A stretch of DNA of 64,000 nucleotides, from positions 2,240,001 to 2,304,000 of the forward strand of contig CM000155.2 in the NCBI GenBank assembly GCA_000004695.1. The letters are read 5' to 3'. Both the position numbers and the translations under genes were made by a program. This DNA comes from Dictyostelium discoideum. Its lineage: Eukaryota. The notes beneath the pieces are model-generated. The model was not told the DNA's origin, made no database searches, and saw nothing but the letters and a program-made list of their open reading frames with translations. Of the stretch, positions 20,246 to 62,424 are shown piece by piece. Numbering within the stretch: the first letter of the stretch is position 1; every line of letters begins with the position of its first letter.

Positions 20246-21063
20246 ATCTAATCAAATTAAATTAAACAAAATCAAAAAAAAAAAAAAAAAAAAAAAATTA
20301 ATTATATAAAAAAATAAAATTGTATAAAAACAAACTATACTTACTGAACCTACAAATTTTTATTAATCATAGAAAGAAATTTTTATGTTATCAAATATCA
20401 TTATTTTTTTTTTTTTTTTTATTTTTTTTTTTTTAATATGAATTTGTAATTTTATTAAAATGTTATTTTAAAAAATGTGGTTGCTAAATTAATTGAAACT
20501 TTTTTAATATAAAAACTTATTGTGTTTTTTTGTGTTTATTTGATTTTTTTGTTTTTATTTTTTTTCTCACCTAAATAAAAAAAAAATAAAAAATAAAATA
20601 AAAAATTAATGAAAAAGGTCGAACACCGGTTGTAGGTTTTGTTGCATCTGTAAAATCAATTATTTATTCTTATAATCAATTATTCATTCACAATCACCGG
20701 CCTCATCAAATTCATTTACATGACCCCATTAGATTTCAATTTGTTTAATCAGATTATTTAGATATGTACATATCACAAAAAGGAATTCCAAAGGTGTATA
20801 ACAAATCACCAGTACATCAATTATCTACATTACTATCATTTTTATAAACATTTTACCATTTACTCCCTTATTTCTGTGATATAGAATTTAGGTTACAATC
20901 AATTACGATAATCCATCATTATGAATTATAATTCCACGTCTATATTTAAATTTTAATTTTTTAATATGAATTTGGATTCTTTTTTTTTTAAATTTTGGTT
21001 AGTTGGTTTGTAAGATTAAAAGGAAATTAATAAACTAGAAGATGTTTAGTTTTATTTAATTTT

Positions 21064-21297: not shown

Positions 21298-22459
21298 GCT
21301 GTTGTCGTTTCAATAATTATAATAAAAATAATAATTATAATTATAAAAATAAAAATTATAAAAATAATAATAATAATAAAAATAATAATAATAATAATAA
21401 CAATAATAATAAGGTTTTATTTATTATTTATTATTTATCATTACCATTGAAAATAATTATAAACCTTTTTCTATTTTTTTTTTTTTTTAAAATTTTTTAA
21501 AAAATTACTAAAAAGAGTTAATTTCATTTTTTTAATTTTTAGTCATTATTATGTGAAAAATAATTTTTATTTTTTATTTTTGTGGGATAATAATAAAATT
21601 TTTTAAATTAACTTTATCAATAGGCATGATTCATAATTTTTTGTGGTGTTGGAATTAAAAAAAAATAAAATGCGAGCGATTACTTTTTGAGGTTTTAAAA
21701 AAAAAGTTGCAAACAACTAACCATTGCCTCATAAATTACTTTTCACCGTTTTAATTCAAAAATTATAATATCTGCAAGATCAACCTAAAAATTTCTAACA
21801 AAATAAAAAATTGGAAATTTTTAAAATATTTAACTCCATTATTTCAGTGATAGAGAGTTTAGGTTACAATAAATATTATTCATCATGAATAATATACCGC
21901 GTTTAATAATTCTTCATCTGTATTTGATTGTAACCTAAACCCTCTACCCCACTTACAAGTATATCTAACTTTTAAAATAGAAATTAATTAAAAATTAAAT
22001 AATTAATTAATTGAAAAAAGAGTATCAAGTTAAAGACACTCTATCCGCTACGAATAAAATAAATTTTAAAAATAAAAAAAAAAAATATTATTTTTGAATT
22101 ATTTTTATATTTTTTTTATATAATTTTTATATTAATAGATAAATAACCTTTTCTTAAACAAAATTTCACTACAACTATATGGCCAATGATATCTGGTAAA
22201 AGAAAAATTTTTTTTTTTTTTTTTAAAAATTTTAATTCAAAAATTAATTTTCTGTATAGATTATTTTAAAATACAAGTTTTCAATTAAATAGCAACATAT
22301 CTATTAATAACTTTGGTGATGAGGTTAAATTTTAAAATTTTATTTTTTAATATGAATTTGGATCCTTTTTTTTAAAATTTTATTTTGTTTGTAAGATTAA
22401 AAGGAAAATAATAAACAAGAAGATGTTTAGTTTTATTAAATTTTTTATATAAAACATCT

Positions 22460-46338: not shown

Positions 46339-48074
46339 TTAAAAATTTGAAAAATTTAAATTTTTATTATTATTAAAATCATCTATTATTAAAGGTTTAT
46401 AACCATTAAATGACACACCAAAATTTTTTAAAAATTTATATTGAATGTCGGATAACTTAAATTGGTTTTCAATAACTGTTTGCTGATTTGATTTGTTTCT
46501 TTTTATATTTATTAAATATTCTAATAGAGAGTCATTTTGTAATTTTACAGATGATTTTAAAATTCTAATTAAAAGGTCACAAAATTCATTTTTAGATAAT
46601 AAAATAAAATCAATTAGTTTGATAGTGAAATAGTGATTATTGGATTGAATGAAAATTTCAAATATATATTCAATTTCCTTTTCACAGAAAAAACCAATTG
46701 AAATTAAATATAAAATAACCCTAGGGTTTGAAGCCAATAAATCATGTAATAATCTTTTCTTAAATGAGTTGCTTTTGTTTAAAACCAATTGTTTCTTTAA
46801 ATACTGATCAATAAAAAAGACCCAATTATTATTTATACAAAGAAATAAAATATTTAAAAATTCATTCTTTTCAAATTGAATTTGATTTTCAGAGTTTGAA
46901 ATTTCGGTTGACCACTTTTTTAAAATAAAAGGTAAAAGTTTTTTATTTGATTGATCATTACTTTCAAATAAATGATGATTTAAAGTTTTTGTTTTATATT
47001 CGAAGGTTTTTTTTGAAATGTAATCATTAAAGTATGGAAGACTATTCAATTTATTAAAAAATTTACATCTTGATACTCTGCAAAGAGGAGGTGATTGTAA
47101 TAATCTTTCAAACATATTTTCAAATAGATTTTTATTATCTTGAATCTTTAATGTTTTAACAAAATTCAAATTCAAGTTATTGAATAGTAATTGTTGATCA
47201 TATTTAATTGAGGATTCTAATAAAGCAAAATAATTATATACACTATTAATAATTTGAGATTGATTCTCGATTGAGGTTAATTGAATTTTAAAGTGATCAA
47301 ACCAATAATTTTCAAATAAATAATTTAAAATTTCTTGATGATTTTCATTTGCTACAGATATTAATAAAGTTAGCGGTGGTTTATAATATTTAGTATATAG
47401 TTTTACTAAAGGTAAATCATTTTGAATGGAAAATGTACGATTTGAATCAAAAATCTTTTGAAGATTTATACCATTTTTTAAAAAGAATTGAAACTTTTCA
47501 ACTGTTAAATATTCAGATGATGATAAACCTCTCCATATTGTCGTTGGTGCTTTCTTTGAAAGTTCAATTGCATTTGATAAATCATTATTTATACATGTTG
47601 GTAAAAATTTAATATTATTTATTAATGAATCGAATGCACGAGTTTTTAAAATGTATTGAGCAATACTTGGATCTTTAACTATAATTGAACTGGTATAGGA
47701 ATTCTTTAATTTCTTTATAAAATCATCAGGTAAAGAAATCATAACTTTTAAAAGTACCAACATTGATGATTTCATTAATGAACATGGTCTAATTTTAAAT
47801 TGATCAATGGTTTTAATTGAAACTTTTGTATCATAAACTTTTATTTTCGAATCAAAAGGATCCATATTTGAATTTAATTTTTTCTTAAAAATTTCTAAAA
47901 CCATTTTAAACATAAATTCATCACTGTATTCTATAATCTTTTCTAAAAATGTTAAATTTGAAGAATTTGATTCAAATAAACCAATTTTATTCAATACCAT
48001 AGGTCCAAACTCTTTTGATAATTTCTTTTCAACAATTTTTTCTAAAACTTTAAAAATTGATTCTTCAAAATTTA

Positions 48075-48129
<55 letters not shown>

Positions 48130-48645
48130 GTTATTAGCTTGAGGAGTTATTAAATCTAATAAAATTTTAAATCTTCTTTTAGAATCACAACTTGATGAGA
48201 ATGAAAATTTTTCTAAATTTTTACAATCATAAATTGTTGGATTAAATATATCTACAATAAATTTCAATGTTTCATAATTTTCTATTGAAACTAATAATGA
48301 ATCTAAAGAATTTGAAACTTTTTTAAATTGTTGTTCAATTTCAAATTGAAAAATCTTATAAATCTTGTAAAATATTTGAAAATCTAATTCCTTCCATTTA
48401 AATAATTTATATAAACAATAATAATTAAAATTTATAAAATGTTTATAATTATCTTTTTGAGAATTTTCAAATAAATAATTTAATTTCTCTATTAATAAAA
48501 CTTCATTCTTGGTTTTAATTATTAATGAAAGTGGAAATTCATAATAATTATATGTTAGATAATATTGATTACTAATTTTTAAAAATTGAAAAATTTTTTT
48601 CCTTAAAAATGAATTTCTATAAACTTTAAAAAATAAATCTCCCAT
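46339..48645 (-). CDS. Member 1 of a tandem lineage-specific paralog family, 768 aa (MGDLFFKVYRNSFLRKKIFQFLKISNQYYLTYNYYEFPLSLIIKTKNEVLLIEKLNYLFEN...). It is the most divergent copy and contains an N18 tract.
   Basis: It shares the roughly 100 aa N-terminal domain (LFxxVFxNxYLxxKIxxYI ... YNYY(D/E)FPLELxLKTKNxxLLIEKL ... FxxxCLxxLxxWxEL) and dispersed C-terminal similarity with the ORFs at 49490, 52229, 55609 and 58560. No known domain was recognised. Confidence 0.7.
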
Positions 48646-49489: not shown

Positions 49490-51814
49490 TTATTTAAAAG
49501 TTAAAGAATAATTAAAAATAGTATTTAAATTTTTAATGAAAAAATTATAATGTTGAGAAGAAGTTTTTTTTGATAAATAATTAATTTTTGAATTATTAAT
49601 TGATAAATGACCAATTAAAAATAATTTAATTAAAATTTTATGTAAAATAAAACTATTACCTAGTTTTCTTTCTAATGAAATTGAACAAAATGATAAATCA
49701 TTTAAAAAACCACCATTATAAACAGAAATGAACAAAAGTTCAACATTTAAAGAAAAACCAAAAGATTTAATTTGAGAATTTGTAAAGATAATCGAATTTA
49801 AAATTGCAAAACGAATAATATTTAATGCAAAGGTTTTTGATCTCCATTTCGAAAGTCCTTTTAAAATATTTTCATTTGAAATTAATTGAGCAATTACAAA
49901 TTTAGAATTTTTTTTATTTATTTTACTAATTGAACTATAGATTTGACCTAAAATTTCGAAAACCATATTAGATACGATATCAGTATACACCTTTCTCAAT
50001 TGAGAATTGTAAAGCCACTTTCTTGCAGTTCCTGGGTTACTTTTTAACCATGACACAAACTCTGGATTAAATTTAAAATTTAGTATACTAATATCATAGA
50101 TTTTATTATCATCTTCTTGATTAAAAAAAAAAGAAGACCTTTCATCAAGTTCTACATAATGTTGTAAAATTATTGGTGAAATGTAATTAAAAAGGTCAAT
50201 TAAATTACATTGAATTGAATGAATTAACAATAAAATAAGATTTGTTTTAAAAAGTGATGGAGATGATCCATCACCAAAGCATATATTACCATGGTTGATA
50301 ATATTCTCTAAAAAACATTTATGTAATTCTTTATTACTACTACTACTGCCAGATTCAAATGCTTTTTTAATTTGATTATAATTATACTTTTTTGGAAACC
50401 TTTTAAAATAAGATTTTAATGCATTCACATCTTGATTCTTGATAATAACATTAAGAATTTCTAATGGATTATAAAAAAATGGTATTTCTTTTTCAAAAAG
50501 ATTTGATTCTATCATTTCTTTATTAACTGATTGTAAAAAGTAGTAATCAATATATTTGTGTTGTGGGAGTGGTAAAGTCTCAAACTTGACCTGTTCTCTT
50601 TTTCCAATTTTTCTAAGTTGGTAATCACAAACCCAAGAGATTTTAACATTATATAAGTTTTTTAATTCTTCAAAATAATTATCATTTAACCATATTGCTA
50701 CATCTGAATCATATATTAATCTTTGTTTGTGAATTGGTTCTTTATCTCTTTGAAAATATTTCCAGTAAAAATTTTTACATAAAACTTTTACAATATCTAG
50801 GTTAAAACTTTCAAAAATAAATCCAATTGGTATATCGAATGATTCCAATATCGATCTCTCTATACTAATTCCTAATAATTTCACAATTTCATCATTATTT
50901 TCTAATAGTGCTAAAGGTAACTTTGTTGGTGGTAGTGGTGTATATTTATATTTTTCTAATAATAATTTAAGCATAAATTGATCTTGGTATTTACTAATTG
51001 CACTAAATAAATTATTTATTGCTGAATAGAATGGATCATACAATATTTGAAATTTATTTGGGAAATATTCTAAAATTAGTGAACCAAATAGTTTTGATTG
51101 ATTTGTTTTAATTATATACTCTAAATAATGTACCAATTCTCTGAATGATACATCAATTTTTAATTCACTAAGGATGTATCTAAAAATTTCTTTTTTCTTT
51201 TTAATTTCATCATCATCATCATCATCATCACCATTTACTGTTCTTTTAAATTTATCAAACATTTTAAATATTGGTTCTATATCTATGGTTTCAATTTCGA
51301 GATACTTATTATTTATCAAGTATTTAAGTTTCTTTAAATCACAAATACCAATTATAATTGAATTATAATCAATTCTAACCAATCGAGCTATATATGGACT
51401 ATTATAATTTAATTTATTATGATATTTAATTTCCTTATTGGTTTTTTTAATTTGTTTATTAATTTCTGTTATTTCATTTTTAAATGTTTCAAAAACAATT
51501 TCAAATAATTCAAATGGTAATTCCCTCCATTTATATAATCTTTTTAAACAATATTCACTAAAATTTAAAAAATGTTTACTTTCTATTATTGATTTATTAT
51601 TATTATTATTATTATTATTTTTAAAATATTTATTATAATTATTTATTTTTTCAATTAATAATGGTTGATTTTTTGTTTTTAATATTAATTCAAGTGGGAA
51701 ATCATAATAGTTATATCCAATATATGTTTGTTCTTTATTGTGTTGTGTAATATATGAATAGATTTTATTGATTAAATATTTATTTTTGAATACTTTATAA
51801 AATAAAAAATCCAT
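49490..51814 (-). CDS. Member 2 of the paralog family, about 774 aa. It most likely starts at MDFLFYKVFKNKYL (ATG 51814). In-frame ATGs at 51821 and 51847 lie within an inverted-repeat arm.
   Basis: The ORF-track ORF 49490..51847 begins MIIFSPNPNMKMDFLF..., and the other paralogs begin MDLLF/MGDLFF. The N-terminal domain is conserved (YNYYDFPLELILKTKNQPLLIEKINNY). It lacks the Pro/Thr linker (YKYTPLPPTKLPLALLENNDEIVKLLGISIERS). Confidence 0.7.
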   Translation of the reverse strand: MDFLFYKVFKNKYLINKIYSYITQHNKEQTYIGYNYYDFPLELILKTKNQPLLIEKINNYNKYFKNNNNNNNNKSIIESKHFLNFSEYCLKRLYKWRELPFELFEIVFETFKNEITEINKQIKKTNKEIKYHNKLNYNSPYIARLVRIDYNSIIIGICDLKKLKYLINNKYLEIETIDIEPIFKMFDKFKRTVNGDDDDDDDEIKKKKEIFRYILSELKIDVSFRELVHYLEYIIKTNQSKLFGSLILEYFPNKFQILYDPFYSAINNLFSAISKYQDQFMLKLLLEKYKYTPLPPTKLPLALLENNDEIVKLLGISIERSILESFDIPIGFIFESFNLDIVKVLCKNFYWKYFQRDKEPIHKQRLIYDSDVAIWLNDNYFEELKNLYNVKISWVCDYQLRKIGKREQVKFETLPLPQHKYIDYYFLQSVNKEMIESNLFEKEIPFFYNPLEILNVIIKNQDVNALKSYFKRFPKKYNYNQIKKAFESGSSSSNKELHKCFLENIINHGNICFGDGSSPSLFKTNLILLLIHSIQCNLIDLFNYISPIILQHYVELDERSSFFFNQEDDNKIYDISILNFKFNPEFVSWLKSNPGTARKWLYNSQLRKVYTDIVSNMVFEILGQIYSSISKINKKNSKFVIAQLISNENILKGLSKWRSKTFALNIIRFAILNSIIFTNSQIKSFGFSLNVELLFISVYNGGFLNDLSFCSISLERKLGNSFILHKILIKLFLIGHLSINNSKINYLSKKTSSQHYNFFIKNLNTIFNYSLTFK

Positions 51815-52216
51815 TTTCATGTTTGGGTTGGGGGAGAAAATGATCATTTTTATTTTTTTTTTTTTTTTTTTATTTTTTTTTTTTTTTTATTAATTTATTA
51901 ATAAAAATTTTTTTTTTTTAACTTATTTTTTATTTTTTATTTTTTTATTTTTTTTTTTTTTTTTGTGATTTAATTTTATTTTTAGTATGAATTTAGTGGA
52001 GAGAACTCAAAATACACACGATATAATATATAAAAATTAATGTAATCATTCTGTTTATTTTTTTTGTTTTTTTTTTTTTATTTTTAGAATTCAATTATTT
52101 ATCATTCTTTTTTTTATGTAATTGTTTTTTTTTATTTTGAAAAGAGAGGGAATATATTTTATATCAATGATAAAAAAAAAAAAAAAAAAGATCATTTTCT
52201 CCCCCAACCCAAACAT
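51815..52216. repeat. MITE-like structure: a perfect 27 bp inverted repeat (atgtttgggttgggggagaaaatgatc / gatcattttctcccccaacccaaacat) flanking a roughly 340 bp AT-rich spacer
   Basis: Arm A at about 51822..51848 overlaps the 5' end of the member-2 ORF. Arm B at about 52189..52215 lies just 3' of member 3's stop (52229). The arms are exact reverse complements of each other. Confidence 0.55.
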
Positions 52217-52228
52217 TTTTTTTTTTAT

Positions 52229-52631
52229 TTAAAATTTTAATTTATTAAAATTTTTATTAAAAATAGTAATATTGTTATAACTAGCATTATGTATCATTGA
52301 AAAAGAAAATAATGCATTGATTTCTGGAAATTTATTTGTTGATGATATTGTTCTTAATAAACAATTATCTACATTTTTAAATGACATATATCCATTAAAA
52401 AACATTTTAATTAAAATTTTATGAAATACAAATCCTTTACCATTATTTTTATCCAAAAATGGTCTACAACATAATATTTCATTAATACTATTTTCATAAA
52501 ATGATTTTACCAAATTTTCATCATCGAAACCAAATGATTTGAATTGATTATCTGAATCTAAAACAATACCATTAATAACAGCAAAACGAATGATATTTAA
52601 AGGAATATTTTTCAAATCCTTTTTATTTTCA

Positions 52632-52669
<38 letters not shown>

Positions 52670-52673
52670 TTTA

Positions 52674-52768
<95 letters not shown>

Positions 52769-54702
52769 TTTATGATTATTATTATTAATATTTTCATACA
52801 TAATTTGATTTGATGTTAATTCTCTAATGATAAACTTTGAATCTGATTTTAAAGTTTTATTAATAATTTTATAATCAACTTTTTCATTTAAAATTTGAAA
52901 GACAGTGTGTGATAATGCATCAAAATAAAATGATTTTAAATGTGAATTGAAAAACCATTTTCTTGAGATATTATTATTTTTAGCACTTTTTAAACATTTA
53001 ATAAATTGGTGATTATATATAAAATCTTTTAAAGTAATCTTTTCATTATTCTTTATTGCTAATGAAATAAAATTAAAAAGTTCAAAAGAACCATAATCAA
53101 CACATGAAGCCAAAAATGAAATAATTGAATTCATATTATGATTTTTTGGAAAATTACAATTAAATATATTTTCTATAAAACAATTAAATAATTGTTTATT
53201 TCCACTATAAAATGCACTATTAACTTGATCGAAATTGTAATAATTTGGAAAAATATTAAAATAAGCAATCAATACTTCAACATTTTCTTCCTTTATTATA
53301 ATATCAACTAATGATGTTAAAAATGAATATTTATTATGAAGTTGTGCTAAAATTGAATATTCATTATAATTATTATTATTATTATTATTATGCTGTTGTA
53401 CTAAAAATTGTTCAGACTCTATCATTTCTTTATTGATAAAATCAAAATAACAATTTGCAATATATTGAAAAGTTTCAAATTTAACCTGTTCCCTTTTATT
53501 ATTGATTCTTAAATGTAAATCACATAGACATGAGATTTTAATTTCGTTTTTCTTTTTTTTTAATAATAAAAAATAATTATCACTTAAAAACAATGCAATT
53601 TTAGGGTCATATATTATTTGAATAGTTGAATTTCTATAAAATCTATCTGTTGTTTCATTGAATAAACTTGATTTTAATGCTTCACAAAGTACCTTTACAA
53701 TTTCTAAATCAAAATTGTTTAAAATAAATTCAAGTGGAAAATTCATTGCTTCTAAAGTTGATTTACTTATTCTAATACCTAACAATGTAAAAATTTCTGA
53801 TTCAGTTGTTGGTGTTAGTGTTGGTGTTGCTGTTGGTGGTGCAAGTGTTGTTGTTGTTGTTGTTTTTGTTGATGATGATGGTGGTGCAGGTGTTGTTGGT
53901 GCAAGTGTTGTTAGTGTTGGTGTTGGTGGTGGGGGTGGTGGTGGTGTTGGTGTTGTTGGTGGCGCAAGTGTTGTTAGTGTTAGTGTTGGTGTTGGTGTTG
54001 GTGTTGGTGTTGGTGTTGGTGTTGGTGTTGGTGGTGTTGGTGGTGTTGGTGGTGGTGTATATTTATATTTTTCTAATAATAATTTAAATATATATTGGTC
54101 TTTGTATTTAGAAATTATTTGAAATACATTGGTTAATTGATTATGTATAATTGGTAATTCTTTTGGGAATAAATCTATAATTTGTTTTCCAAAAATTTTC
54201 GATTGATCTTTAATCATAATTTCACATAAATATGTTGTTAATTGAGTAAATGATAAATCAATTTTAGATTCGTTTATTAAATATTGAAATATTTCTTTTA
54301 ATTTTATTTCTTCATCATGATGATCATGATTCACTTGGATTCTATAAATCATTTTTCTTTTTCTTTTTAATTTTCTTGAATGTATTAAACTAAAAACTGA
54401 ATTGATATTGATTGACTCAGTTTCGAGTAATTGATTATTTATTATATATTTGAGTTTATCTAAATCTCCATTAATGATTAGATAACTATGGTATAGTATT
54501 TTTTCTTTTCCATATTTATTTATTTTAATTTTTCCAATTATTTTTTCAATTTCTTTTTTAAATGTTTGAAAAATAAGTTCAAATAATTCTAATGATAATT
54601 CACTCCATTTATATAATAGTTTTAAACATTGTTCATTAAATGTTAAAAAATGTTTACTATTTAATATTGATATTTCTGAATATTTATTATTTTTATTATT
54701 AC

Positions 54703-54760
<58 letters not shown>

Positions 54761-54955
54761 TATAAAATATTTAATATAATTATTTAATTTTTCAATTAAT
54801 AATGGTTGATTCTTTGTTTTTAAAACAAGTTCTAATGGGAAATCATAATAGCTGTATCTGATTAATCTTTGTTCTTTATTATACTCTGAAATATATGAAT
54901 AGATTTTTTTCTTTAAATAAATATTTTTAAAAACCTGACTGAATAATAAATCCAT
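52229..54955 (-). CDS. Member 3 of the paralog family, 908 aa. It has the longest Pro/Thr-rich hypervariable linker (YTPPPTPPTPPTPTPTPTPTPTPTPTLTLTTLAPPTTPTPPPPPPPTPTLTTLAPTTPAPPSSSTKTTTTTTLAPPTATPTLTPTTESEIF) and a long Asn/Lys tract.
   Basis: It is over 80% identical to members 4 and 5 outside the linker and homopolymer regions. The linker is encoded by (ACACCA)n-type repeats, seen on the plus strand as (ggtgtt)n at 53811..54060. Confidence 0.7.
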
Positions 54956-55094: not shown

Positions 55095-55103
55095 ATCCCA
55101 CAA
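55095..55103 (+). promoter_or_regulatory. DUSE-like box (TCCCACAA), about 76-83 bp upstream of the Class I RNA at 55179
   Basis: The sequence caaaatcccacaaccaaaaa is present. The same box recurs at the same distance upstream of the second Class I RNA copy (58089..58096). Confidence 0.4.
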
Positions 55104-55178
55104 CCAAAAATAATAAAATATGTATCACGATATATATTAATAATTATAAAAATAATTAAATGTGCAAAAACACAAATA

Positions 55179-55239
55179 AGTTGACCTTACAGCAATCTTA
55201 ACAATTTTATCACATTATAAAAAAAAACCTCAGTCAACT
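55179..55239 (+). ncRNA. Class I RNA (Dictyostelid-specific small ncRNA), about 61 nt
   Basis: AAGTTGACCTTACAGCAATCTTAACAATTTTATCACATTATAAAAAAAAACCTCAGTCAACTG contains the exact 11 nt Class I motif CCTTACAGCAA, immediately 3' of a 5' stem strand (AGTTGAC). That strand pairs with the 3' end (GTCAACT). This is the published architecture of Class I RNAs. A DUSE-like TCCCACAA box lies upstream. Confidence 0.6.
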
Positions 55240-55608
55240 GTATAAAGTGATAAATTTTTTTAAGTTCCTAACTTCCGAATATTAAGAGAGGTCCGAGGTT
55301 CGAAACTCCGTATAGTAACCAATAAAAGTGACCCAAATGGGGCTCAGCTTAGTTGTAGGCCCACTAAAGCTAAAAACTACAAAAAACAATTTGAATCACC
55401 CAAAAACCAAAAACCAATCAAAAAAAAAAAAAAAAAGATTTAAAAAAAGAATGGAAAAAAAGTTATACATAACTTTTTTTTATTTAAAATTTTAATTTAT
55501 TAAAATTTTCATTAAAAATAGAAATATTATTATAACTAGAATTACGTATCATTGAAAAAGAAAATAAGGCATTGATTTCTGGAAATTTATTTGTTGATGA
55601 TAATGTTC

Positions 55609-57951
55609 TTAATGAACGATTTCCTTTATCTTTAAATGACATATATCCATTAAAAACATTTTAATTAAAATTTTATGAAATACAAATCCTTTACCATTAT
55701 TTTTATCCAATAATTGTTTACTACATAATATTTCATCAATACTATTTTCATATAACGATTTTACTAAATCTTCATCATCGAAACCAAATGATTTGAATTG
55801 GTTATCTGAATCTAAAACAATACCATTAATAACAGCAAAACGAATGATATTTAAAGGAATATTTTTCAAATCCTTTATATTTTCATTATTATTATTAATA
55901 TTATTATCATTATTATTACAATACATAATTTGGTTTGATATTAATTCTCCAATGATAAACTTTGAATCTGATTTTAAAGCTTTACGAATAATTCCATAAT
56001 CAACTTTTTTATTTAAAATTTGAAAGACTGTATGTGATAATGCATCAGAATAAATTGATTTTAAATGTGAATTGATAAACCATTTTCTTGAGATATTATT
56101 ATTATTTTTTGCACTTTTTAAACATTTAATAAATCGATAATTATTAATAAAATCATTTAAAGTAATCTTTTCATTATTCTTAATTGTTAATGAAATAAAA
56201 TTAAAAAGTTTAAAAGAACCATAATCGATACATGAAGCCAAAAATGAAATAATTGAAATTATATTATAATTGTATGGAAAATTACCATTAAATATATTTT
56301 CTATAAAACAATTAAATAATTGTTTATTTCCACTATAAAATGCACTATTAACTTGATCGAAATTGTAATAATTTGGAAAAATACTAAAATGAGCAATCAA
56401 TACTTCAACATTTTCTTCCTTTATTATAATATCAACTAATGATGTTAAAAATGGATATTTATTAAAATTAATTTGCTGTTGCGCTAATAATGAATTATTA
56501 TAATAATTATTAATATTATTATTATTTTGTCGTGCTAAAAATTGTTCAGACTCTATCATTTCTTTATTGATAGTATCAAAATAACAATTTAAAATATATT
56601 GAGAAGTTTCAAATTTAACCTGTTCCCTTTTACCAATGATTCTTAATTGTAAATCACATAGCCATGAGATTTTAATTTCATTTTTCTTTTTTTTTAATAA
56701 TAAAAAATAATTATCACTTAAAAACAATGCAATTTTAGGGTCATATATTATATGATTAGTTGGGCATGTATTGAATTTATCTGTTGTTTCATTGAATAAT
56801 CTTGATTTTAATGCTTCACAAAGTACCTTTACAATTTCTAAATCAAAATTGTTTAAAATAAATTCAAGTGGAAAATTCATTGCTTCTAAAGTTGATTTAC
56901 TTATTCTAATACCTAACAATGTAAAAATTTCTGATTCGGTTGTTGTTGATGTTGCTTTTGTTGCTGTTGTTGGTGGTACAAGTGTTGGTGTTGGTGTTTG
57001 TGTTGGTGTTGGTGTTGGTGTTGGTGGTGTTGGTGGTGTATATTTATATTTATCTAATAATAATTTAAATATATATTGATCTTTAAATTTAGAAATTATA
57101 TCAAATACATTGGTTAATTGCTTATGTATGATTGGTAATTCTTTTGGAAATAATTCTATAATTTGTTTTCCAAATATTTTCGATTGATCTGTAATCATAA
57201 TTTCACATAGATATGTTGTTAATTGAGTAAATGATAAATAAATTTTATATTCATTTATTAAATATTGAAATATTTCTTGTAATTTTATTTCTTCATCATG
57301 ATTCACTTGGATTGTAATTTCAGAACGAATCATTTTTCTTTTTCTTTTTAATTTTCTTGAATGTATTAAACTAAAAACTGAATTGATATTGATTGACTCA
57401 GTTTCGAGTAATTGATTATTTATTATATATTTGAGTTTATCTAAATCTCCATTACTGATTAAATTAATATGGTGTTGTATTTTTTCTTTTCCATCTTTAT
57501 TTATTTTTTTAATTTTTCCAATTATTTCTTCAATTTCTTTTTTAAATGTTTGAAAAATAAGTTCAAATAATTCTAATGATAATTCACCCCATTTATATAA
57601 TAGTTTTAAACATTGTTCATTAAATGTTAAAAAATGTTTACTATTTAATATTGATATTTCTGAATACTGATTATTATCGTTATTATTATTATTTTTATTA
57701 TTACTATTATTATTATTTTTTTTTTTATTACTATTATTTTTATTATTATTATTATTTTTAAAATATTTATTAAAATTATTTAATTTTTCAATTAATAATG
57801 GTTGATTCTTTGTTTTTAAAACGAGTTCTAATGGGAAATCATAATAGTTATATCTGATTAATCTTTGTTCTTTATTATACTCTGAAATATATGAATAGAT
57901 TTTTTTCTTTAAATAAATATTTTTAAAAACCTGACTGAATAATAAATCCAT
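55609..57951 (-). CDS. Member 4 of the paralog family, 780 aa as read. It has an apparent 1 bp deletion in a poly-A run near the 3' end, which truncates and alters the last roughly 45 residues relative to members 3 and 5. It has a short PT linker (YTPPTPPTPTPTPTQTPTPTLVPPTTATKATSTTTESEIF).
   Basis: The DNA downstream of the stop (55475..55608) still matches the C-terminal coding sequence of members 3 and 5 (…ccattaaaaacattttaattaaaatt versus …ccattaaaaaacaatttaattaaaatt). This indicates a frameshift, which is either a pseudogenising mutation or a homopolymer sequencing error. Confidence 0.6.
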   Translation of the reverse strand: MDLLFSQVFKNIYLKKKIYSYISEYNKEQRLIRYNYYDFPLELVLKTKNQPLLIEKLNNFNKYFKNNNNNKNNSNKKKNNNNSNNKNNNNNDNNQYSEISILNSKHFLTFNEQCLKLLYKWGELSLELFELIFQTFKKEIEEIIGKIKKINKDGKEKIQHHINLISNGDLDKLKYIINNQLLETESININSVFSLIHSRKLKRKRKMIRSEITIQVNHDEEIKLQEIFQYLINEYKIYLSFTQLTTYLCEIMITDQSKIFGKQIIELFPKELPIIHKQLTNVFDIISKFKDQYIFKLLLDKYKYTPPTPPTPTPTPTQTPTPTLVPPTTATKATSTTTESEIFTLLGIRISKSTLEAMNFPLEFILNNFDLEIVKVLCEALKSRLFNETTDKFNTCPTNHIIYDPKIALFLSDNYFLLLKKKKNEIKISWLCDLQLRIIGKREQVKFETSQYILNCYFDTINKEMIESEQFLARQNNNNINNYYNNSLLAQQQINFNKYPFLTSLVDIIIKEENVEVLIAHFSIFPNYYNFDQVNSAFYSGNKQLFNCFIENIFNGNFPYNYNIISIISFLASCIDYGSFKLFNFISLTIKNNEKITLNDFINNYRFIKCLKSAKNNNNISRKWFINSHLKSIYSDALSHTVFQILNKKVDYGIIRKALKSDSKFIIGELISNQIMYCNNNDNNINNNNENIKDLKNIPLNIIRFAVINGIVLDSDNQFKSFGFDDEDLVKSLYENSIDEILCSKQLLDKNNGKGFVFHKILIKMFLMDICHLKIKEIVH

Positions 57952-58088: not shown

Positions 58089-58096
58089 TCCCACAA
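58089..58096 (+). promoter_or_regulatory. DUSE-like box (TCCCACAA) upstream of the Class I RNA at 58171
   Basis: The sequence gaaaatcccacaaccaaaaa is present at the same spacing, about 75-82 bp, as in the first copy. Confidence 0.4.
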
Positions 58097-58170
58097 CCAA
58101 AAATTATAAATATTTATCAGGATATATATTAATTATTTTAAAAATAATTAAATGTGCAAAAACACAAATA

Positions 58171-58229
58171 AGTTGACCTTACAGCAATCTTAACAAAATT
58201 TTTTCTGAATAAAAAAACCTAAGTCAACT
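58171..58229 (+). ncRNA. Class I RNA, second copy, about 59 nt
   Basis: AGTTGACCTTACAGCAATCTTAACAAAATTTTTTCTGAATAAAAAAACCTAAGTCAACT has the same motif and terminal stem, with the internal loop region diverged. A 3'-end fragment (aaaacctaagtcaactgtatc) is duplicated again at about 58321..58341. Confidence 0.6.
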
Positions 58230-58559
58230 GTATCTTTTATAAAATTTTTTCTAAAACCTAAGTCTTTTTTTTTTGAATTGGATAACGCAATTATTATTTG
58301 CTTCTCCTTGAGGTTATTCTAAAACCTAAGTCAACTGTATCTTTATAAAATTTTTTAAGGTTCGAACTCCCAAGCTAAAGATGTCCTAGGTTCGAAACTC
58401 GGTCACGAATCAAATTAATGTGACCCAAAATGGGGCTCACCTTGTTGTAGTCTTACTAAAGCTAAAAACAATCAAACCACCCAAAAACAGTAAAAAACTA
58501 AAAACCAACCAACATTCAAATTTAAAAAAGAATGGAAAAAAGTTATATATAAATATATT

Positions 58560-58982
58560 TTAAAATTTTAATTTATTAAAATCTTCATTAAAAATAGTAA
58601 TATTGTTATAATTAGCATTACGTATCATTGAAAAAGAAATTAATGCATTGATTTCTGGAAATTTATTTGTTGATGATAATGTTCTTAATAAACGATTTCC
58701 TTTAACTTTAAATGACATATATCCATTAAAAAACAATTTAATTAAAATTCTATGAAATACAAATCCTCTACCATTATTTTTATCCAATAATGGTCTACTA
58801 CATAATATTTCATTGATACTATTTTCATAAAATGATTTTACCAAATTTTCATCATCGAAACCAAATGATTTGAATTGAATATCTGAATCTAAAACAATAC
58901 CATTAATAACAGCAAAACGAATGATATTTAAAGGAATATTTTTCAAATCCATTTTATTTTCATTATTATTTTCATTATTGTA

Positions 58983-59072
<90 letters not shown>

Positions 59073-61019
59073 ATATATAATTTGGTTTGATGTTAATTCT
59101 CTAATGATAAACTTTGAATCTGATTTTAAAGCTTTATGAGTAATTCTATAATCGACTTTTTTGTTTAAAATTTGAAAGACAGTATGTGATAATGCATCAA
59201 AATAAAATGATTTTAAATGTGAATTGATAAACCATTTTCTTGAGATATTATTATTACTTTTAACACTTTTTAAACATTCAATAAATTGATAATTACTAAT
59301 AAAATATTCTATACTAATATTTTCATTATTCTTTATTGTTAATGAAATAAAATTAAAAAGTTTGAAAGAACCATAATCGATACATGAAGCCAAAAATGAA
59401 ATAATTGAAAATATATTATAATTGTATGGAAAATTACCATTAAATATATTTTCTATAAAACAATTAAATAATTGTTTATTTCCACTATAAAATGCATTAT
59501 TAACTTGATTGAAATTGTAATAATTTGGAAAAATATTAAAATAAGCAATCAATGCTCCAACATCTTCTTCCATTACTATAATATCAACAAATGATGTTAA
59601 AAATGAATAATTATTATTATAATAATTATTATGCTGTTGTGCTAAAAATTGTTCAGACTCTATCATTTCTTTATTGATAAAATCAAAATAACAATTTGCA
59701 ATATATTGAGAAGTTTCAAATTTAACCTGTTCCCTTTTACCAACGATTCTTAATCGTAAATCACATAGCCATGAGATTTTAATTTCGTTTTTCTTTTTTT
59801 TTAATAATAAAAAATAATTATCACTTAAAAACAATGCAATTTTAGGGTCATATATTATTTGAATAGTTGAATTTGTATTAAATTTATCTGTTGTTTCATT
59901 GAGTAATCTTGATTTTAATGCTTCGCAAAGTACCTTTACAATTTCTAAATCAAAATTGTTTAAAATAAATTCAAGTGGGAAATTCATTGCTTCTAAAGTT
60001 GATTTACTTATTCTAATACCTAACAATGTAAAAATTTCTGATTCGGTTGTTGTTGGTGTTGGTGTTGGTGTTGGTGTTGGTTTTTTTGTTGGTGTTTGTG
60101 GTGGTACAAGTGTTGGTGTTGGTGTTGGTGGTGGTGTTGGTGGTGTTGGTGGTGGTGTATATTTATATTTATCTAATAATAATTTAAATATAAATTGGTC
60201 TTTGTATTTAGAAATTATTTGAAATACATTGGTTAATTGATTATGTATAATTGGTAATTCTTTTGGAAATAATTCTATAATTTGTTTTCCAAATATTTTC
60301 GATTGATCTTTAATCATAATTTCACATAAATATGTTGTTAATTGAGTGAATGATAAATCAATTTTTGATTCTTTTATTAAATATTGAAATATTTCTTGTA
60401 ATTTTATTTCTTCATCATGATGATCATGATTCACTTGGATTGTAATTTCAGAACGAATCATTTTTCTTTTTCTTTTTAATTTTCTTGAATGTATTAAACT
60501 AAAAACTGAATTGAAGTTGATTGATTCAGTTTCGAGTAATTGATTATCTATTATATATTTGAGTTTATCTAAATCTCCATTACTGATTAAATTAATATGG
60601 TGTTGTATTTTTTCTTTTCTATATTTATTTATTTTTTTAATTTTTCCAATTAATTTCTCAATTTCTTTTTTAAATGTTTGAAAAATAAGTTCAAATAATT
60701 CTAATGGTAATTCACTCCATTTATATAATAGTTTTAAACATTGTTCATTAAATGTTAAAAAATGTTTACTATTTAATATTGATATTTCTGAATACTGATT
60801 ATTATTATTATTAATATTATTATTTTTAAAATATTTATTATAATTATTTAATTTTTCAATTAATAATGGTTGATTCTTTGTTTTTAAAACGAGTTCTAAT
60901 GGGAAATCATAATAGTTATATCTGATAGATCTCTGTTCTTTATTATACTCTGAAATATATGAATAGATTTTTTTCTTTAAATAAATATTTTTAAAAACCT
61001 GACTGAATAATAAATCCAT
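58560..61019 (-). CDS. Member 5 of the paralog family, 819 aa. Its PT linker reads YTPPPTPPTPPPTPTPTLVPPQTPTKKPTPTPTPTPTTTESEIF, and it has an N30 tract.
   Basis: Outside the linker it is near-identical to members 3 and 4 in sequence and domain order. The full C-terminus is intact (…LRTLSSTNKFPEINALISFSMIRNANYNNITIFNEDFNKLKF*). Confidence 0.7.
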
Positions 61020-61095
61020 ATTATATATAAAAAAAAAAAAGAAAAAGAAGTTTTTTTTTTTTTTACAAATTGTTGTAGGGAATTTTCAATAAAAT

Positions 61096-61153
61096 TTCAC
61101 TACAGTAGCGTAGTGAATTTTATTATTTAATTTCACTACAGTAGCGTAGTGAA
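61096..61153. promoter_or_regulatory. Two tandem copies, 36 bp apart, of a 22 nt perfect hairpin palindrome ttcactac-agtagc-gtagtgaa. They lie about 75-130 bp upstream of the member-5 start codon.
   Basis: The rc of ttcactac is gtagtgaa, giving an 8 bp stem and a 6 nt loop. The copies are at 61096..61117 and 61132..61153. The element is not present upstream of the other paralogs. Confidence 0.3.
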
Positions 61154-61580
61154 AAAAAAAAATCACTGACCCTAAATTTTTTTTTTTTTCAAAAAACAAA
61201 TAAAGTTTATTAAATTATTATCTTTTATTTGAATATTAGCTCTATTTAAGGTTTTTTAATTTTTTTTTTTTAATTTAATTTTTTTTTTTTTTAATTTAAT
61301 TTTTTTTTTTTTTTTTGCGCCAAAATTTTTTTTTTTTTTCCCCAACAAAACTTTTTTTTTTTTTTTTTTTTTTTTTATTTTCATTTTCCCAAAATGAAAC
61401 AAGATAAATTATTTAAAATTTATTGAAGATAATAATTTTGAAAATACTAAACATAAAAATTATAAATTTTTACATGATGAGTAAATATTTTTCCTTACCA
61501 TAACACAATCATTTTTTAAATTCTGACCAATAAAAAACAGAAACAGAAAAGAAAAATTATTTAGAATTGAAAAAAAAGTC

Positions 61581-62424
61581 ATGAATTGTGGCGGAGATAG
61601 AAATATATCAAAAGAAGTGTGTTTAGAAGTAATTAATGATTATAGAATGGTATCACTCTGGGAAGAAATGCATAAAGGTCATATAGGAAGAGATGCAACC
61701 TATGGGAACTACAAGACTAAATATTATAATATGGGATTGTATTCTTTTGTATCTGATGCAGTAGATACGTGTGACATTTGCCAACGAAATAGAATAAAAG
61801 GTTTGGTATCAATCATTTTTTATATGATGTTTTGTAACTTTTATATTAAAACTCTGTGAAAGTATGGCACTGCGATAATGGACGTGAATTTAAAAACAAA
61901 GTCCAAAAAGAATTCCTAAAACTTTTTCCAGGCTCCAAGTCAGCACATGGAGCTCCTCGTACACCAACAACTCAAGGTATGGTAGAAAGATTGAATCGAA
62001 CTATCAAGGAGAGGATCTCAAAATTAAAACAACAAGAGTATGATATTGTGAACAATATAAATTATCGATATGTTTATTAATTAATCATTTATAAATAAAT
62101 TTTAGTTTTCTTGATGGTACTTCTAGGTCTCTTTCTGAACTATTAAAACAAGCTTTGTATGATTACAATAATACAAAAACAAGAACAATTAAAATGACAC
62201 CATCTCAAGCTGTTGGTATTGTTCCTTTGTTTATTAATGTTCAATCAGAACAAGACTCTCAATCAATTGGTGTTTCAGATGTTTCAAAAGAAGAAAGAAC
62301 AGCTATTATTCTTGAAAATCTCACAAGTTACCAAAATCAATGGAATTCAAAACCACCAAAGGGATTGAAAGTTGGTGATACTGTACTCTTTCTAGAAATT
62401 AAAAAAAATAATGTAAGTAATTAA
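61581..62424 (+). mobile_element. Degenerate internally deleted remnant of a Ty3/gypsy-type LTR retrotransposon integrase (skipper/DGLT-A-like)
   Basis: Three consecutive ORF fragments lie in pol order. The first has an HHCC zinc finger (HKGHIGRDATY...CDICQRNR). The second has the distal catalytic core (WHCDNGREFKN...GAPRTPTTQGMVERLNRTIKE). The third has the C-terminal region (YNNTKTRTIKMTPSQAVG). They are separated by stops and frameshifts. The first two-thirds of the D,D(35)E core is missing. GC content is locally elevated. The remnant abuts an assembly gap. Confidence 0.6.

Follow-up and report, generated by a model that had tools for sequence, protein, structure and literature searches.

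A perfect 27-nt inverted repeat was found between two neighbouring paralogs in a 64-kb stretch of Dictyostelium discoideum AX4 chromosome 6 (hereafter the window). It is very probably a lineage-specific mutational scar, an inverted copy of the leader of DDB_G0292950 itself, and not an element. The left arm, ATGTTTGGGTTGGGGGAGAAAATGATC, is an exact match at positions 51819-51845 of the plus strand, on which it is G-rich. The right arm, at 52190-52216 on the minus strand, is its exact reverse complement (27/27). Between the two lies an AT-rich intergenic interior of 344 nt (51846-52189). An earlier note on this DNA had described a perfect 27-bp inverted repeat, and with 27 of 27 positions paired and only two copies in 64 kb this description stands. 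The arms were present where the note had seen them, with its positions (51822-51848 and 52189-52215) being 3 and 1 nt off, respectively, while the 340 bp given for the distance between them has to be replaced by the measured 344 nt.

The 27-mer repeat is far beyond chance. Any 27-mer match was obtained in 0 of 100 dinucleotide shuffles. No third copy was found in the 64-kb window with up to three mismatches allowed, nor, beyond this locus, did the 27-mer match anything in the four related loci that were fetched (about 76 kb). A custom scan of the window gave 6031 exact inverted repeats of at least 16 nt with arms within 2 kb. The 27-mer was the sole exact one in the whole window with a length of at least 17 nt, a G + C content of at least 25%, a non-repetitive sequence and arms within 2 kb. 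The G + C content was 44% in the arm versus about 20% in the region, in agreement with the previous remark that the arm is strikingly non-AT. Together with the adjoining T and A runs the complementarity reached 45 nt at 96%, an extension which carries little weight at ~20% G + C. The 22-mer core of the arm had no match in JGI metagenome contigs, a collection that says nothing on the Dictyostelium genome, and its 12-mer core was not found in any searchable Dictyostelium paper.

The genes around the repeat form an array of five tandem paralogs on the minus strand (46339-48645, 49490-51847, 52229-54955, 55609-57951 and 58560-61019), of which the ORF 49490-51847 was 100% identical to DDB_G0292950. 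No Pfam domain was found in this paralog family, which is an orphan family. Its tandem units are ~90% identical to each other, and their copy number varies among strains. An exact-protein look-up gave no locus for DDB_G0292950, and a locus was found for the neighbouring 908-aa protein.

The inverted repeat fills nearly the whole spacer between the 908-aa paralog and DDB_G0292950. The right arm follows the stop codon of the upstream, 908-aa paralog (TAA, 52229-52231, minus strand, from the ORF list) at a distance of 12 nt, and an AATAAA motif overlaps this stop codon on the sense strand. The left arm, which reads GATCATTTTCTCCCCCAACCCAAACAT on the sense (minus) strand, lies upstream of DDB_G0292950, with 4 nt between its end and the annotated ATG (51812-51814, minus strand). 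With the stop at 52229 and the start at 51814, the repeat does bridge the 3' end of one paralog and the 5' end of the next, as had been noted.

The mechanical ORF 49490-51847 begins MIIFSPNPNMKMDFLF, and the annotated DDB_G0292950 (774-aa protein P0001, 100% identity) begins MDFLF at the ATG 51814-51812. In the paralog alignment every member begins MD(L/F)LF. The additional residues, MIIFSPNPNMK, come from an in-frame upstream ATG within the left arm and are absent from the annotated protein. The suspicion that one arm supplies a spurious N-terminal extension was therefore correct, and the analysis of the inverted repeat accounts for this in-frame extension of DDB_G0292950 in annotation.

The spacer regions were compared by BLAST with a score cut-off. 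The comparison assemblies were GCA_054883475.1 (L004), GCA_054859385.1 (ACTFIR, L002) and GCA_054859355.1 (ACTFIW, L001). L004 encoded an identical 908-aa protein and matched the window with 99.85% identity over 8.7 kb, with one mismatch and five homopolymer gaps. Both arms were exact and in the same context in L004, with T- and A-run lengths in the spacer that differ from AX4. The repeat is, on this sequence evidence, no assembly artefact, because an independent assembly of the same lineage carries both arms. Chimeric clones can yield palindromic structures, but given the independent homopolymer lengths of L004 the chance that the AX4 reference has an error of assembly or cloning here is as good as nil.

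The syntenic spacer was also present in L001 and L002, both from more diverged D. discoideum isolates, at about 91-93% identity at the locus. In L002 and L001 the left arm had kept its place, with the same start codon 4 nt away, as the variants ATGTTTGGGTTTGGAGAAAAATGATGACC and ATGTTTGGGTTGGAGAAAAAATGGTGATC. These variants had at least four differences per 27 nt to the AX4 arm, and L004 was identical to it. Positions 51960-52190 of AX4 aligned with 16352-16118 of L002 and 19617-19423 of L001, in an orientation matching both flanks. As judged from these alignments, the interior is an ordinary intergenic spacer, orthologous and co-linear across strains, with no transposon cargo. No orthologous spacer was found within the stretch fetched for L003 (Dictyostelium cf. 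discoideum). Only the spacer is clearly orthologous; in an array that undergoes gene conversion and varies in copy number, the upstream gene need not be a strict orthologue.

An upstream ATG in an AAAATG context was retained in the DDB_G0292950 leader of the three lineages (window 51812-51847, L001 20370-20415 and L002 17010-17055). In AX4 it is in frame with DDB_G0292950 (MIIFSPNPNMKMD...), and in L001 and L002 it opens a short out-of-frame uORF, with a TGA overlapping the main start region.

The earlier note had proposed to check whether the arms are absent from other strains. The right arm was found in AX4 and L004 and was missing from L001 and L002, which retain the left arm. At the site of the right arm, L001 and L002 carry GAATGGAAAAAAAGTTTTATATAGC or GAATGTAAAAAAAGTTATATATATAGC, between the conserved ...ATTGATGATAATTAAAAAAA and TTTTTTTTATTTAAAATTTTAATTT. 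This replacement is the GAATGGAAAAAAAGTTATA motif that also follows all other examined paralog copies: ACTFIR, ACTFIW and every other examined paralog 3' flank had GAATG(G/T)AAAAAAAGTTAYAYATA at the position of the right arm. Across four assemblies, a AAAAAGTTAYAYATA-type motif came after the stop in 10 of the 12 paralog flanks, the exceptions being this locus in AX4 and in L004. Within the window the ancestral-type motif was found on the plus strand in the next paralog unit (GAATGGAAAAAAAGTTATACATAAC, 55449-55473), as the counterpart of the replaced segment, and in the unit after that one (GAATGGAAAAAAGTTATATATAAATATAT, 58530-58558). Since all 10 other paralog flanks carry it, the 3' flank motif is ancestral and the right arm derived.

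The replaced segment is bounded on both sides by alignable orthologous sequence (...ATTGATGATAA..AAAAAAA and TTTTTTTTATTTAAAATTTTAATTT). No similarity of the ancestral segment to the arm was found, so that the event was de novo copying and not the correction of an older imperfect palindrome. The copy is recent and was made in cis from an AX4-type allele, because it agrees 27/27 with the left arm of the AX4 type, and not with the variants of the other strains. The polarity of the copying error can thus be read from the comparison of strains.

The preferred explanation is an inverted templated copy, for which the left arm, as DDB_G0292950's native 5' leader, served as template. About 23-25 nt just past the stop of the neighbouring paralog (ancestrally ATGGAAAAAAAGTTTTATATAGC) would, in the AX4/NC4-type lineage, have been replaced by a 25-27 nt inverted copy of the leader, taken from a source about 350 bp away from the insertion point, most likely by a single switch-and-return event. 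On the plus strand, AX4 agrees with the ancestral-type alleles through ...AAAAAAGA, up to 52191. Next it has TCATTTTCTCCCCCAACCCAAACAT, the complement of 51843 back to 51819, where the ancestral type has ATGGAAAAAAAGTTTTATATAGC, and the shared sequence resumes at the T-run, at 52217. The putative primer end, as read from the sequence, is a run of 18 A followed by GA (52172-52191, plus strand). Its 3' end, ...AAAAAAGA (52191), would pair with TCATTTTT at 51844-51851, within a perfect 14-nt palindrome (AAAATGATCATTTT, 51837-51850) at the inner end of the left arm. Synthesis would then run back along the template to 51819, and the nascent strand would return to its original path at the T-run from 52217.

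At the primer junction the ancestral-type alleles read ...TAATTAAAAAAAGA/ATGG, the slash marking the junction. The microhomology on the priming side, AAAAA(A/T)GA, matches the complement of 51844-51851 in seven of eight positions, and that on the return side is 1-3 nt (T). Such junctions fit either a template switch in replication or break repair primed by fold-back. The setting may accordingly have been a replication fork (template switch, four-point model) or a resected double-strand break folding back on itself; as far as enzymology can be deduced from the product, it could equally have been fork switching or break repair. One of the readings offered earlier, a hairpin-forming recombination footprint, agrees in essence with the outcome of the strain comparison. 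For a selected function of the repeat there is no sign.

The repeat is a further instance of a known mutation type. In the four-point template switch, the 1->4 fragment gives way to the 2->3 fragment in reverse complement (Loytynoja & Goldman 2017, PMC5453318). Our case has in common with it an insert that is the exact reverse complement of a nearby segment, a perfect inverted repeat as the product, the appearance, in linear alignment, of clustered substitutions and indels, and conserved flanks on both sides of the replaced segment. The published template-switch screens cover events within a few tens of bp (PMC5453318), whereas the template is here about 350 bp distant. The target was also without a prior quasi-palindrome, and the setting, an amoebozoan intergenic spacer with about 80% A + T, is unlike the described four-point cases.

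The fold-back templated inversions of yeast have inserts of about 5-34 bp and a microhomology of 0-5 bp at the second junction (PMC11724301). The insert of 25-27 nt is within the range of these and of polymerase-theta-type insertions, with which it also shares a small deletion alongside the insert. As in fold-back insertion at double-strand breaks, the priming microhomology is longer (7/8) and the capture microhomology minimal (1-3 nt). The yeast system differs in its loop of 41 nt (PMC11724301), compared with about 344 nt here. Fold-back insertion is characterised by dependence on a double-strand break and on Pol delta/NHEJ or Pol theta. In the literature consulted, no such insertion pathway is documented for Dictyostelium. 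The distance of the template (~350 bp, as opposed to tens of bp or a 41-nt loop in the described systems) weighs against our interpretation. If it is correct, inverted templated patches can use templates about 350 bp off, beyond the reach of most template-switch screens. A transposon-like, G-rich perfect repeat in a very AT-rich genome would then be a one-step copying error, which makes it both a caution and a tidy example.

The structure had been called MITE-like in the earlier note, and it does resemble MITEs such as the Dictyostelium thug-S (mentioned in PMC6161686) in its perfect 27-nt terminal inverted repeats around a short, AT-rich, non-coding interior. A MITE-like insertion is moreover known in the same spacer of another strain (L001 20190-20320). 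A non-autonomous DNA transposon of ~400 bp inserted between the paralogs is nevertheless very unlikely. No target-site duplication was found, the flanks CCATTTTC and TTTTTTTT sharing only ubiquitous T-runs, and no further copy was present in the 64 kb or in the roughly 76 kb from related loci. L001 and L002 offer no empty site: their alleles, which are without the right arm, still have the left one and an orthologous interior, and in AX4 some 23 nt have given way to the right arm, which is not part of an inserted block. Because these two strains lack the right arm only, the ~400-bp unit never inserted as a block. With the two arms as the only copies in the window and the fetched loci, and no target-site duplication, the evidence favours what the note had named as the alternative to a MITE, a local palindromic duplication.

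It is improbable, too, that the repeat predates the split of the strains, with gene conversion by neighbouring units having since removed it from the other isolates. A tandem array with ~90% identity between units and a copy number that varies among strains makes conversion plausible. The arms are, however, 27/27 identical, and the left arm differs at four or more positions between strains; an old repeat would be expected to have diverged to a similar degree. The spacer adjacent to the motif in the other strains (attgatgataa...) is orthologous to AX4 and not to the paralog units, so that a conversion tract of only about 25 nt would be required. Even then the arm would still have originated by an inverted templated replacement of the family-wide motif. 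Two further candidates were rejected. In a retrocopy with the 18-nt A-run as its poly(A) tail, the run would be 3' of the sense-oriented copy, and it is 5' of it. An inversion of the interior by recombination between the arms does not agree with an interior that is co-linear in AX4, L004, L001 and L002.

The spacers of L001 and L002 are about 500-600 bp longer than that of AX4, which reflects either a deletion in AX4 or an insertion in the others, and is possibly tied to the inverted-copy event. The segment missing from the AX4 spacer includes a short palindrome, AAGATATTTTCACGG...GAGCTCGAAAATATCTT, common to L001 and L002. At 20190-20320 of L001 there is a strain-specific palindromic MITE-like element of ~125 bp (GTAAAAAACATTCAAGTTTGAGCACTTTTG ... 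CAAAAAGTGCGCAAATTTGAATGGTTTTAAC), and at 16400-16560 of L002 a strain-specific block with three ctgctgaaattaatatgg repeats. Real mobile or repeat insertions thus happen in this spacer in other strains, and not in AX4.

An inverted templated copy can at once make long-range complementarity between the UTRs of neighbouring genes, and template switching can make new RNA hairpins and miRNA genes (PMC8794818, PMC10710096). In D. discoideum, miRNAs come from intergenic hairpins (PMC6161686). We considered a functional RNA device, in which the upstream paralog would pair through its 3' UTR with the complementary DDB_G0292950 leader and the tandem paralogs would cross-regulate each other through the duplex. 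By read-through or by pairing in trans, a 27-bp duplex would mask the leader or feed the Dicer/RNAi machinery. Both arms are on the strand that is sense for both genes and in UTR-like positions, one 12 nt behind a stop codon that has an AATAAA motif, the other 4 nt ahead of a start codon. In a predicted fold of the 441-nt sense RNA the arms pair, with a minimum free energy of -80 kcal/mol compared with -41 ± 4 for shuffles (z = -9.5). Like the template-switch-born hairpins and miRNA genes, the repeat would be a perfect stem made de novo, in one step, in (potentially) transcribed DNA; it differs from them in the loop of 344 nt and in a pairing that is not conserved. The right arm was absent from two D. 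discoideum isolates, a 344-nt loop is unlike the known Dictyostelium miRNA precursors, there was no Rfam match, and the arm sequence was in no searchable paper. A miRNA-like locus is defined by a compact stem-loop precursor that gives rise to DrnB-dependent 21-nt RNAs. Such a device is unlikely. That one template switch created a strain-specific antisense or hairpin circuit between the paralogs, acting through siRNAs or a translation block, would be a snapshot of the birth of a regulatory RNA in Dictyostelium, and we hold it to be quite doubtful. The only predictable consequence of the copy is that a read-through transcript could form the predicted perfect stem of 27 bp. A hidden ncRNA in the interior was also rejected, with no Rfam match at E<=10 and no DUSE in 51800-52230. 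MAFFT gave a weak homology of the interior to the DUSE-TSS interval of the neighbouring spacers, and the interior is at most a decayed remnant of an ncRNA spacer.

The G-rich arm could in principle be a transcription-factor site (GBF G-box or DUSE-like), the copy adding an upstream element for DDB_G0292950. The arm is unusually G/C-rich for intergenic DNA, the left arm has been kept beside the start codon in three lineages, and the distance from the ATG to the new, upstream copy is about 375-400 bp. On neither strand does the arm contain an exact GBF element, (T/G)G(T/G)G(T/G)G(T/G) (PMC2257962); 7-mers with one mismatch are all that occur. No DUSE (WCCCAYAA) was found in the spacer (51800-52230), in contrast to the window's U3 and Class I RNA genes, which have true DUSEs ahead of them. 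We consider a site of this kind extremely unlikely. A cruciform regulatory element, which had also been suggested, gained no support, the right arm being absent from other strains. Cruciform extrusion would, on general grounds, be disfavoured by a spacer of 344 bp.

An Rfam search of the window detected Dictyostelium Class I RNAs, two U3 genes and tRNAs. Two genes of the Class I RNA type (RF01414; 57 and 53.5 bits) were at 55096-55240 and 58089-58230, between the paralog units that come next, and some 75-80 nt upstream of either one is a DUSE (TCCCACAA). In both spacers a DUSE goes with a Class I RNA, so in the tandem duplication the ncRNA gene travelled with the protein gene. The spacer between the fourth and fifth paralogs had an extra, partial duplicate of the Class I RNA 3' end, with aaacctaagtcaactgtatc occurring twice in 58215-58345. 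Downstream of the Class I RNA genes, 55260-55400 and 58340-58500 have a block in common, with a tRNA B-box-like GGTTCGAAACTC and gtgacccaaa(a)tggggctca. This block may be a tRNA-derived or SINE-like remnant. DUSE-like motifs at 35238 (plus strand), 39824 (minus strand) and 40092 (plus strand) had no Rfam gene nearby.

A 23-nt inverted repeat with 91% complementarity and a 50-nt loop (TAGAGAGTTTAGGTTACAATAAA ... TTGATTGTAACCTAAACCCTCTA) was found at 21851-21946, with a third related copy about 1 kb off (20875-20906). This compact hairpin may represent a MITE or the precursor of a small RNA, and at 21580 on the minus strand there is a DUSE-like TCCCACAA. At 61093-61117 and 61129-61153, upstream of the last paralog, there is a direct repeat of 25 nt, AATTTCACTACAGTAGCGTAGTGAA, with identical copies. 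Each copy has an internal palindrome (CACTAC..GTAGTG), and the repeats adjoin an apparent retroelement integrase fragment (about 61560-62000). The two U3 snoRNA genes (28536-28807 and 30739-31010, about 90 bits each) are 2.2 kb apart, and each has a DUSE (TCCCATAA) about 63 nt upstream.
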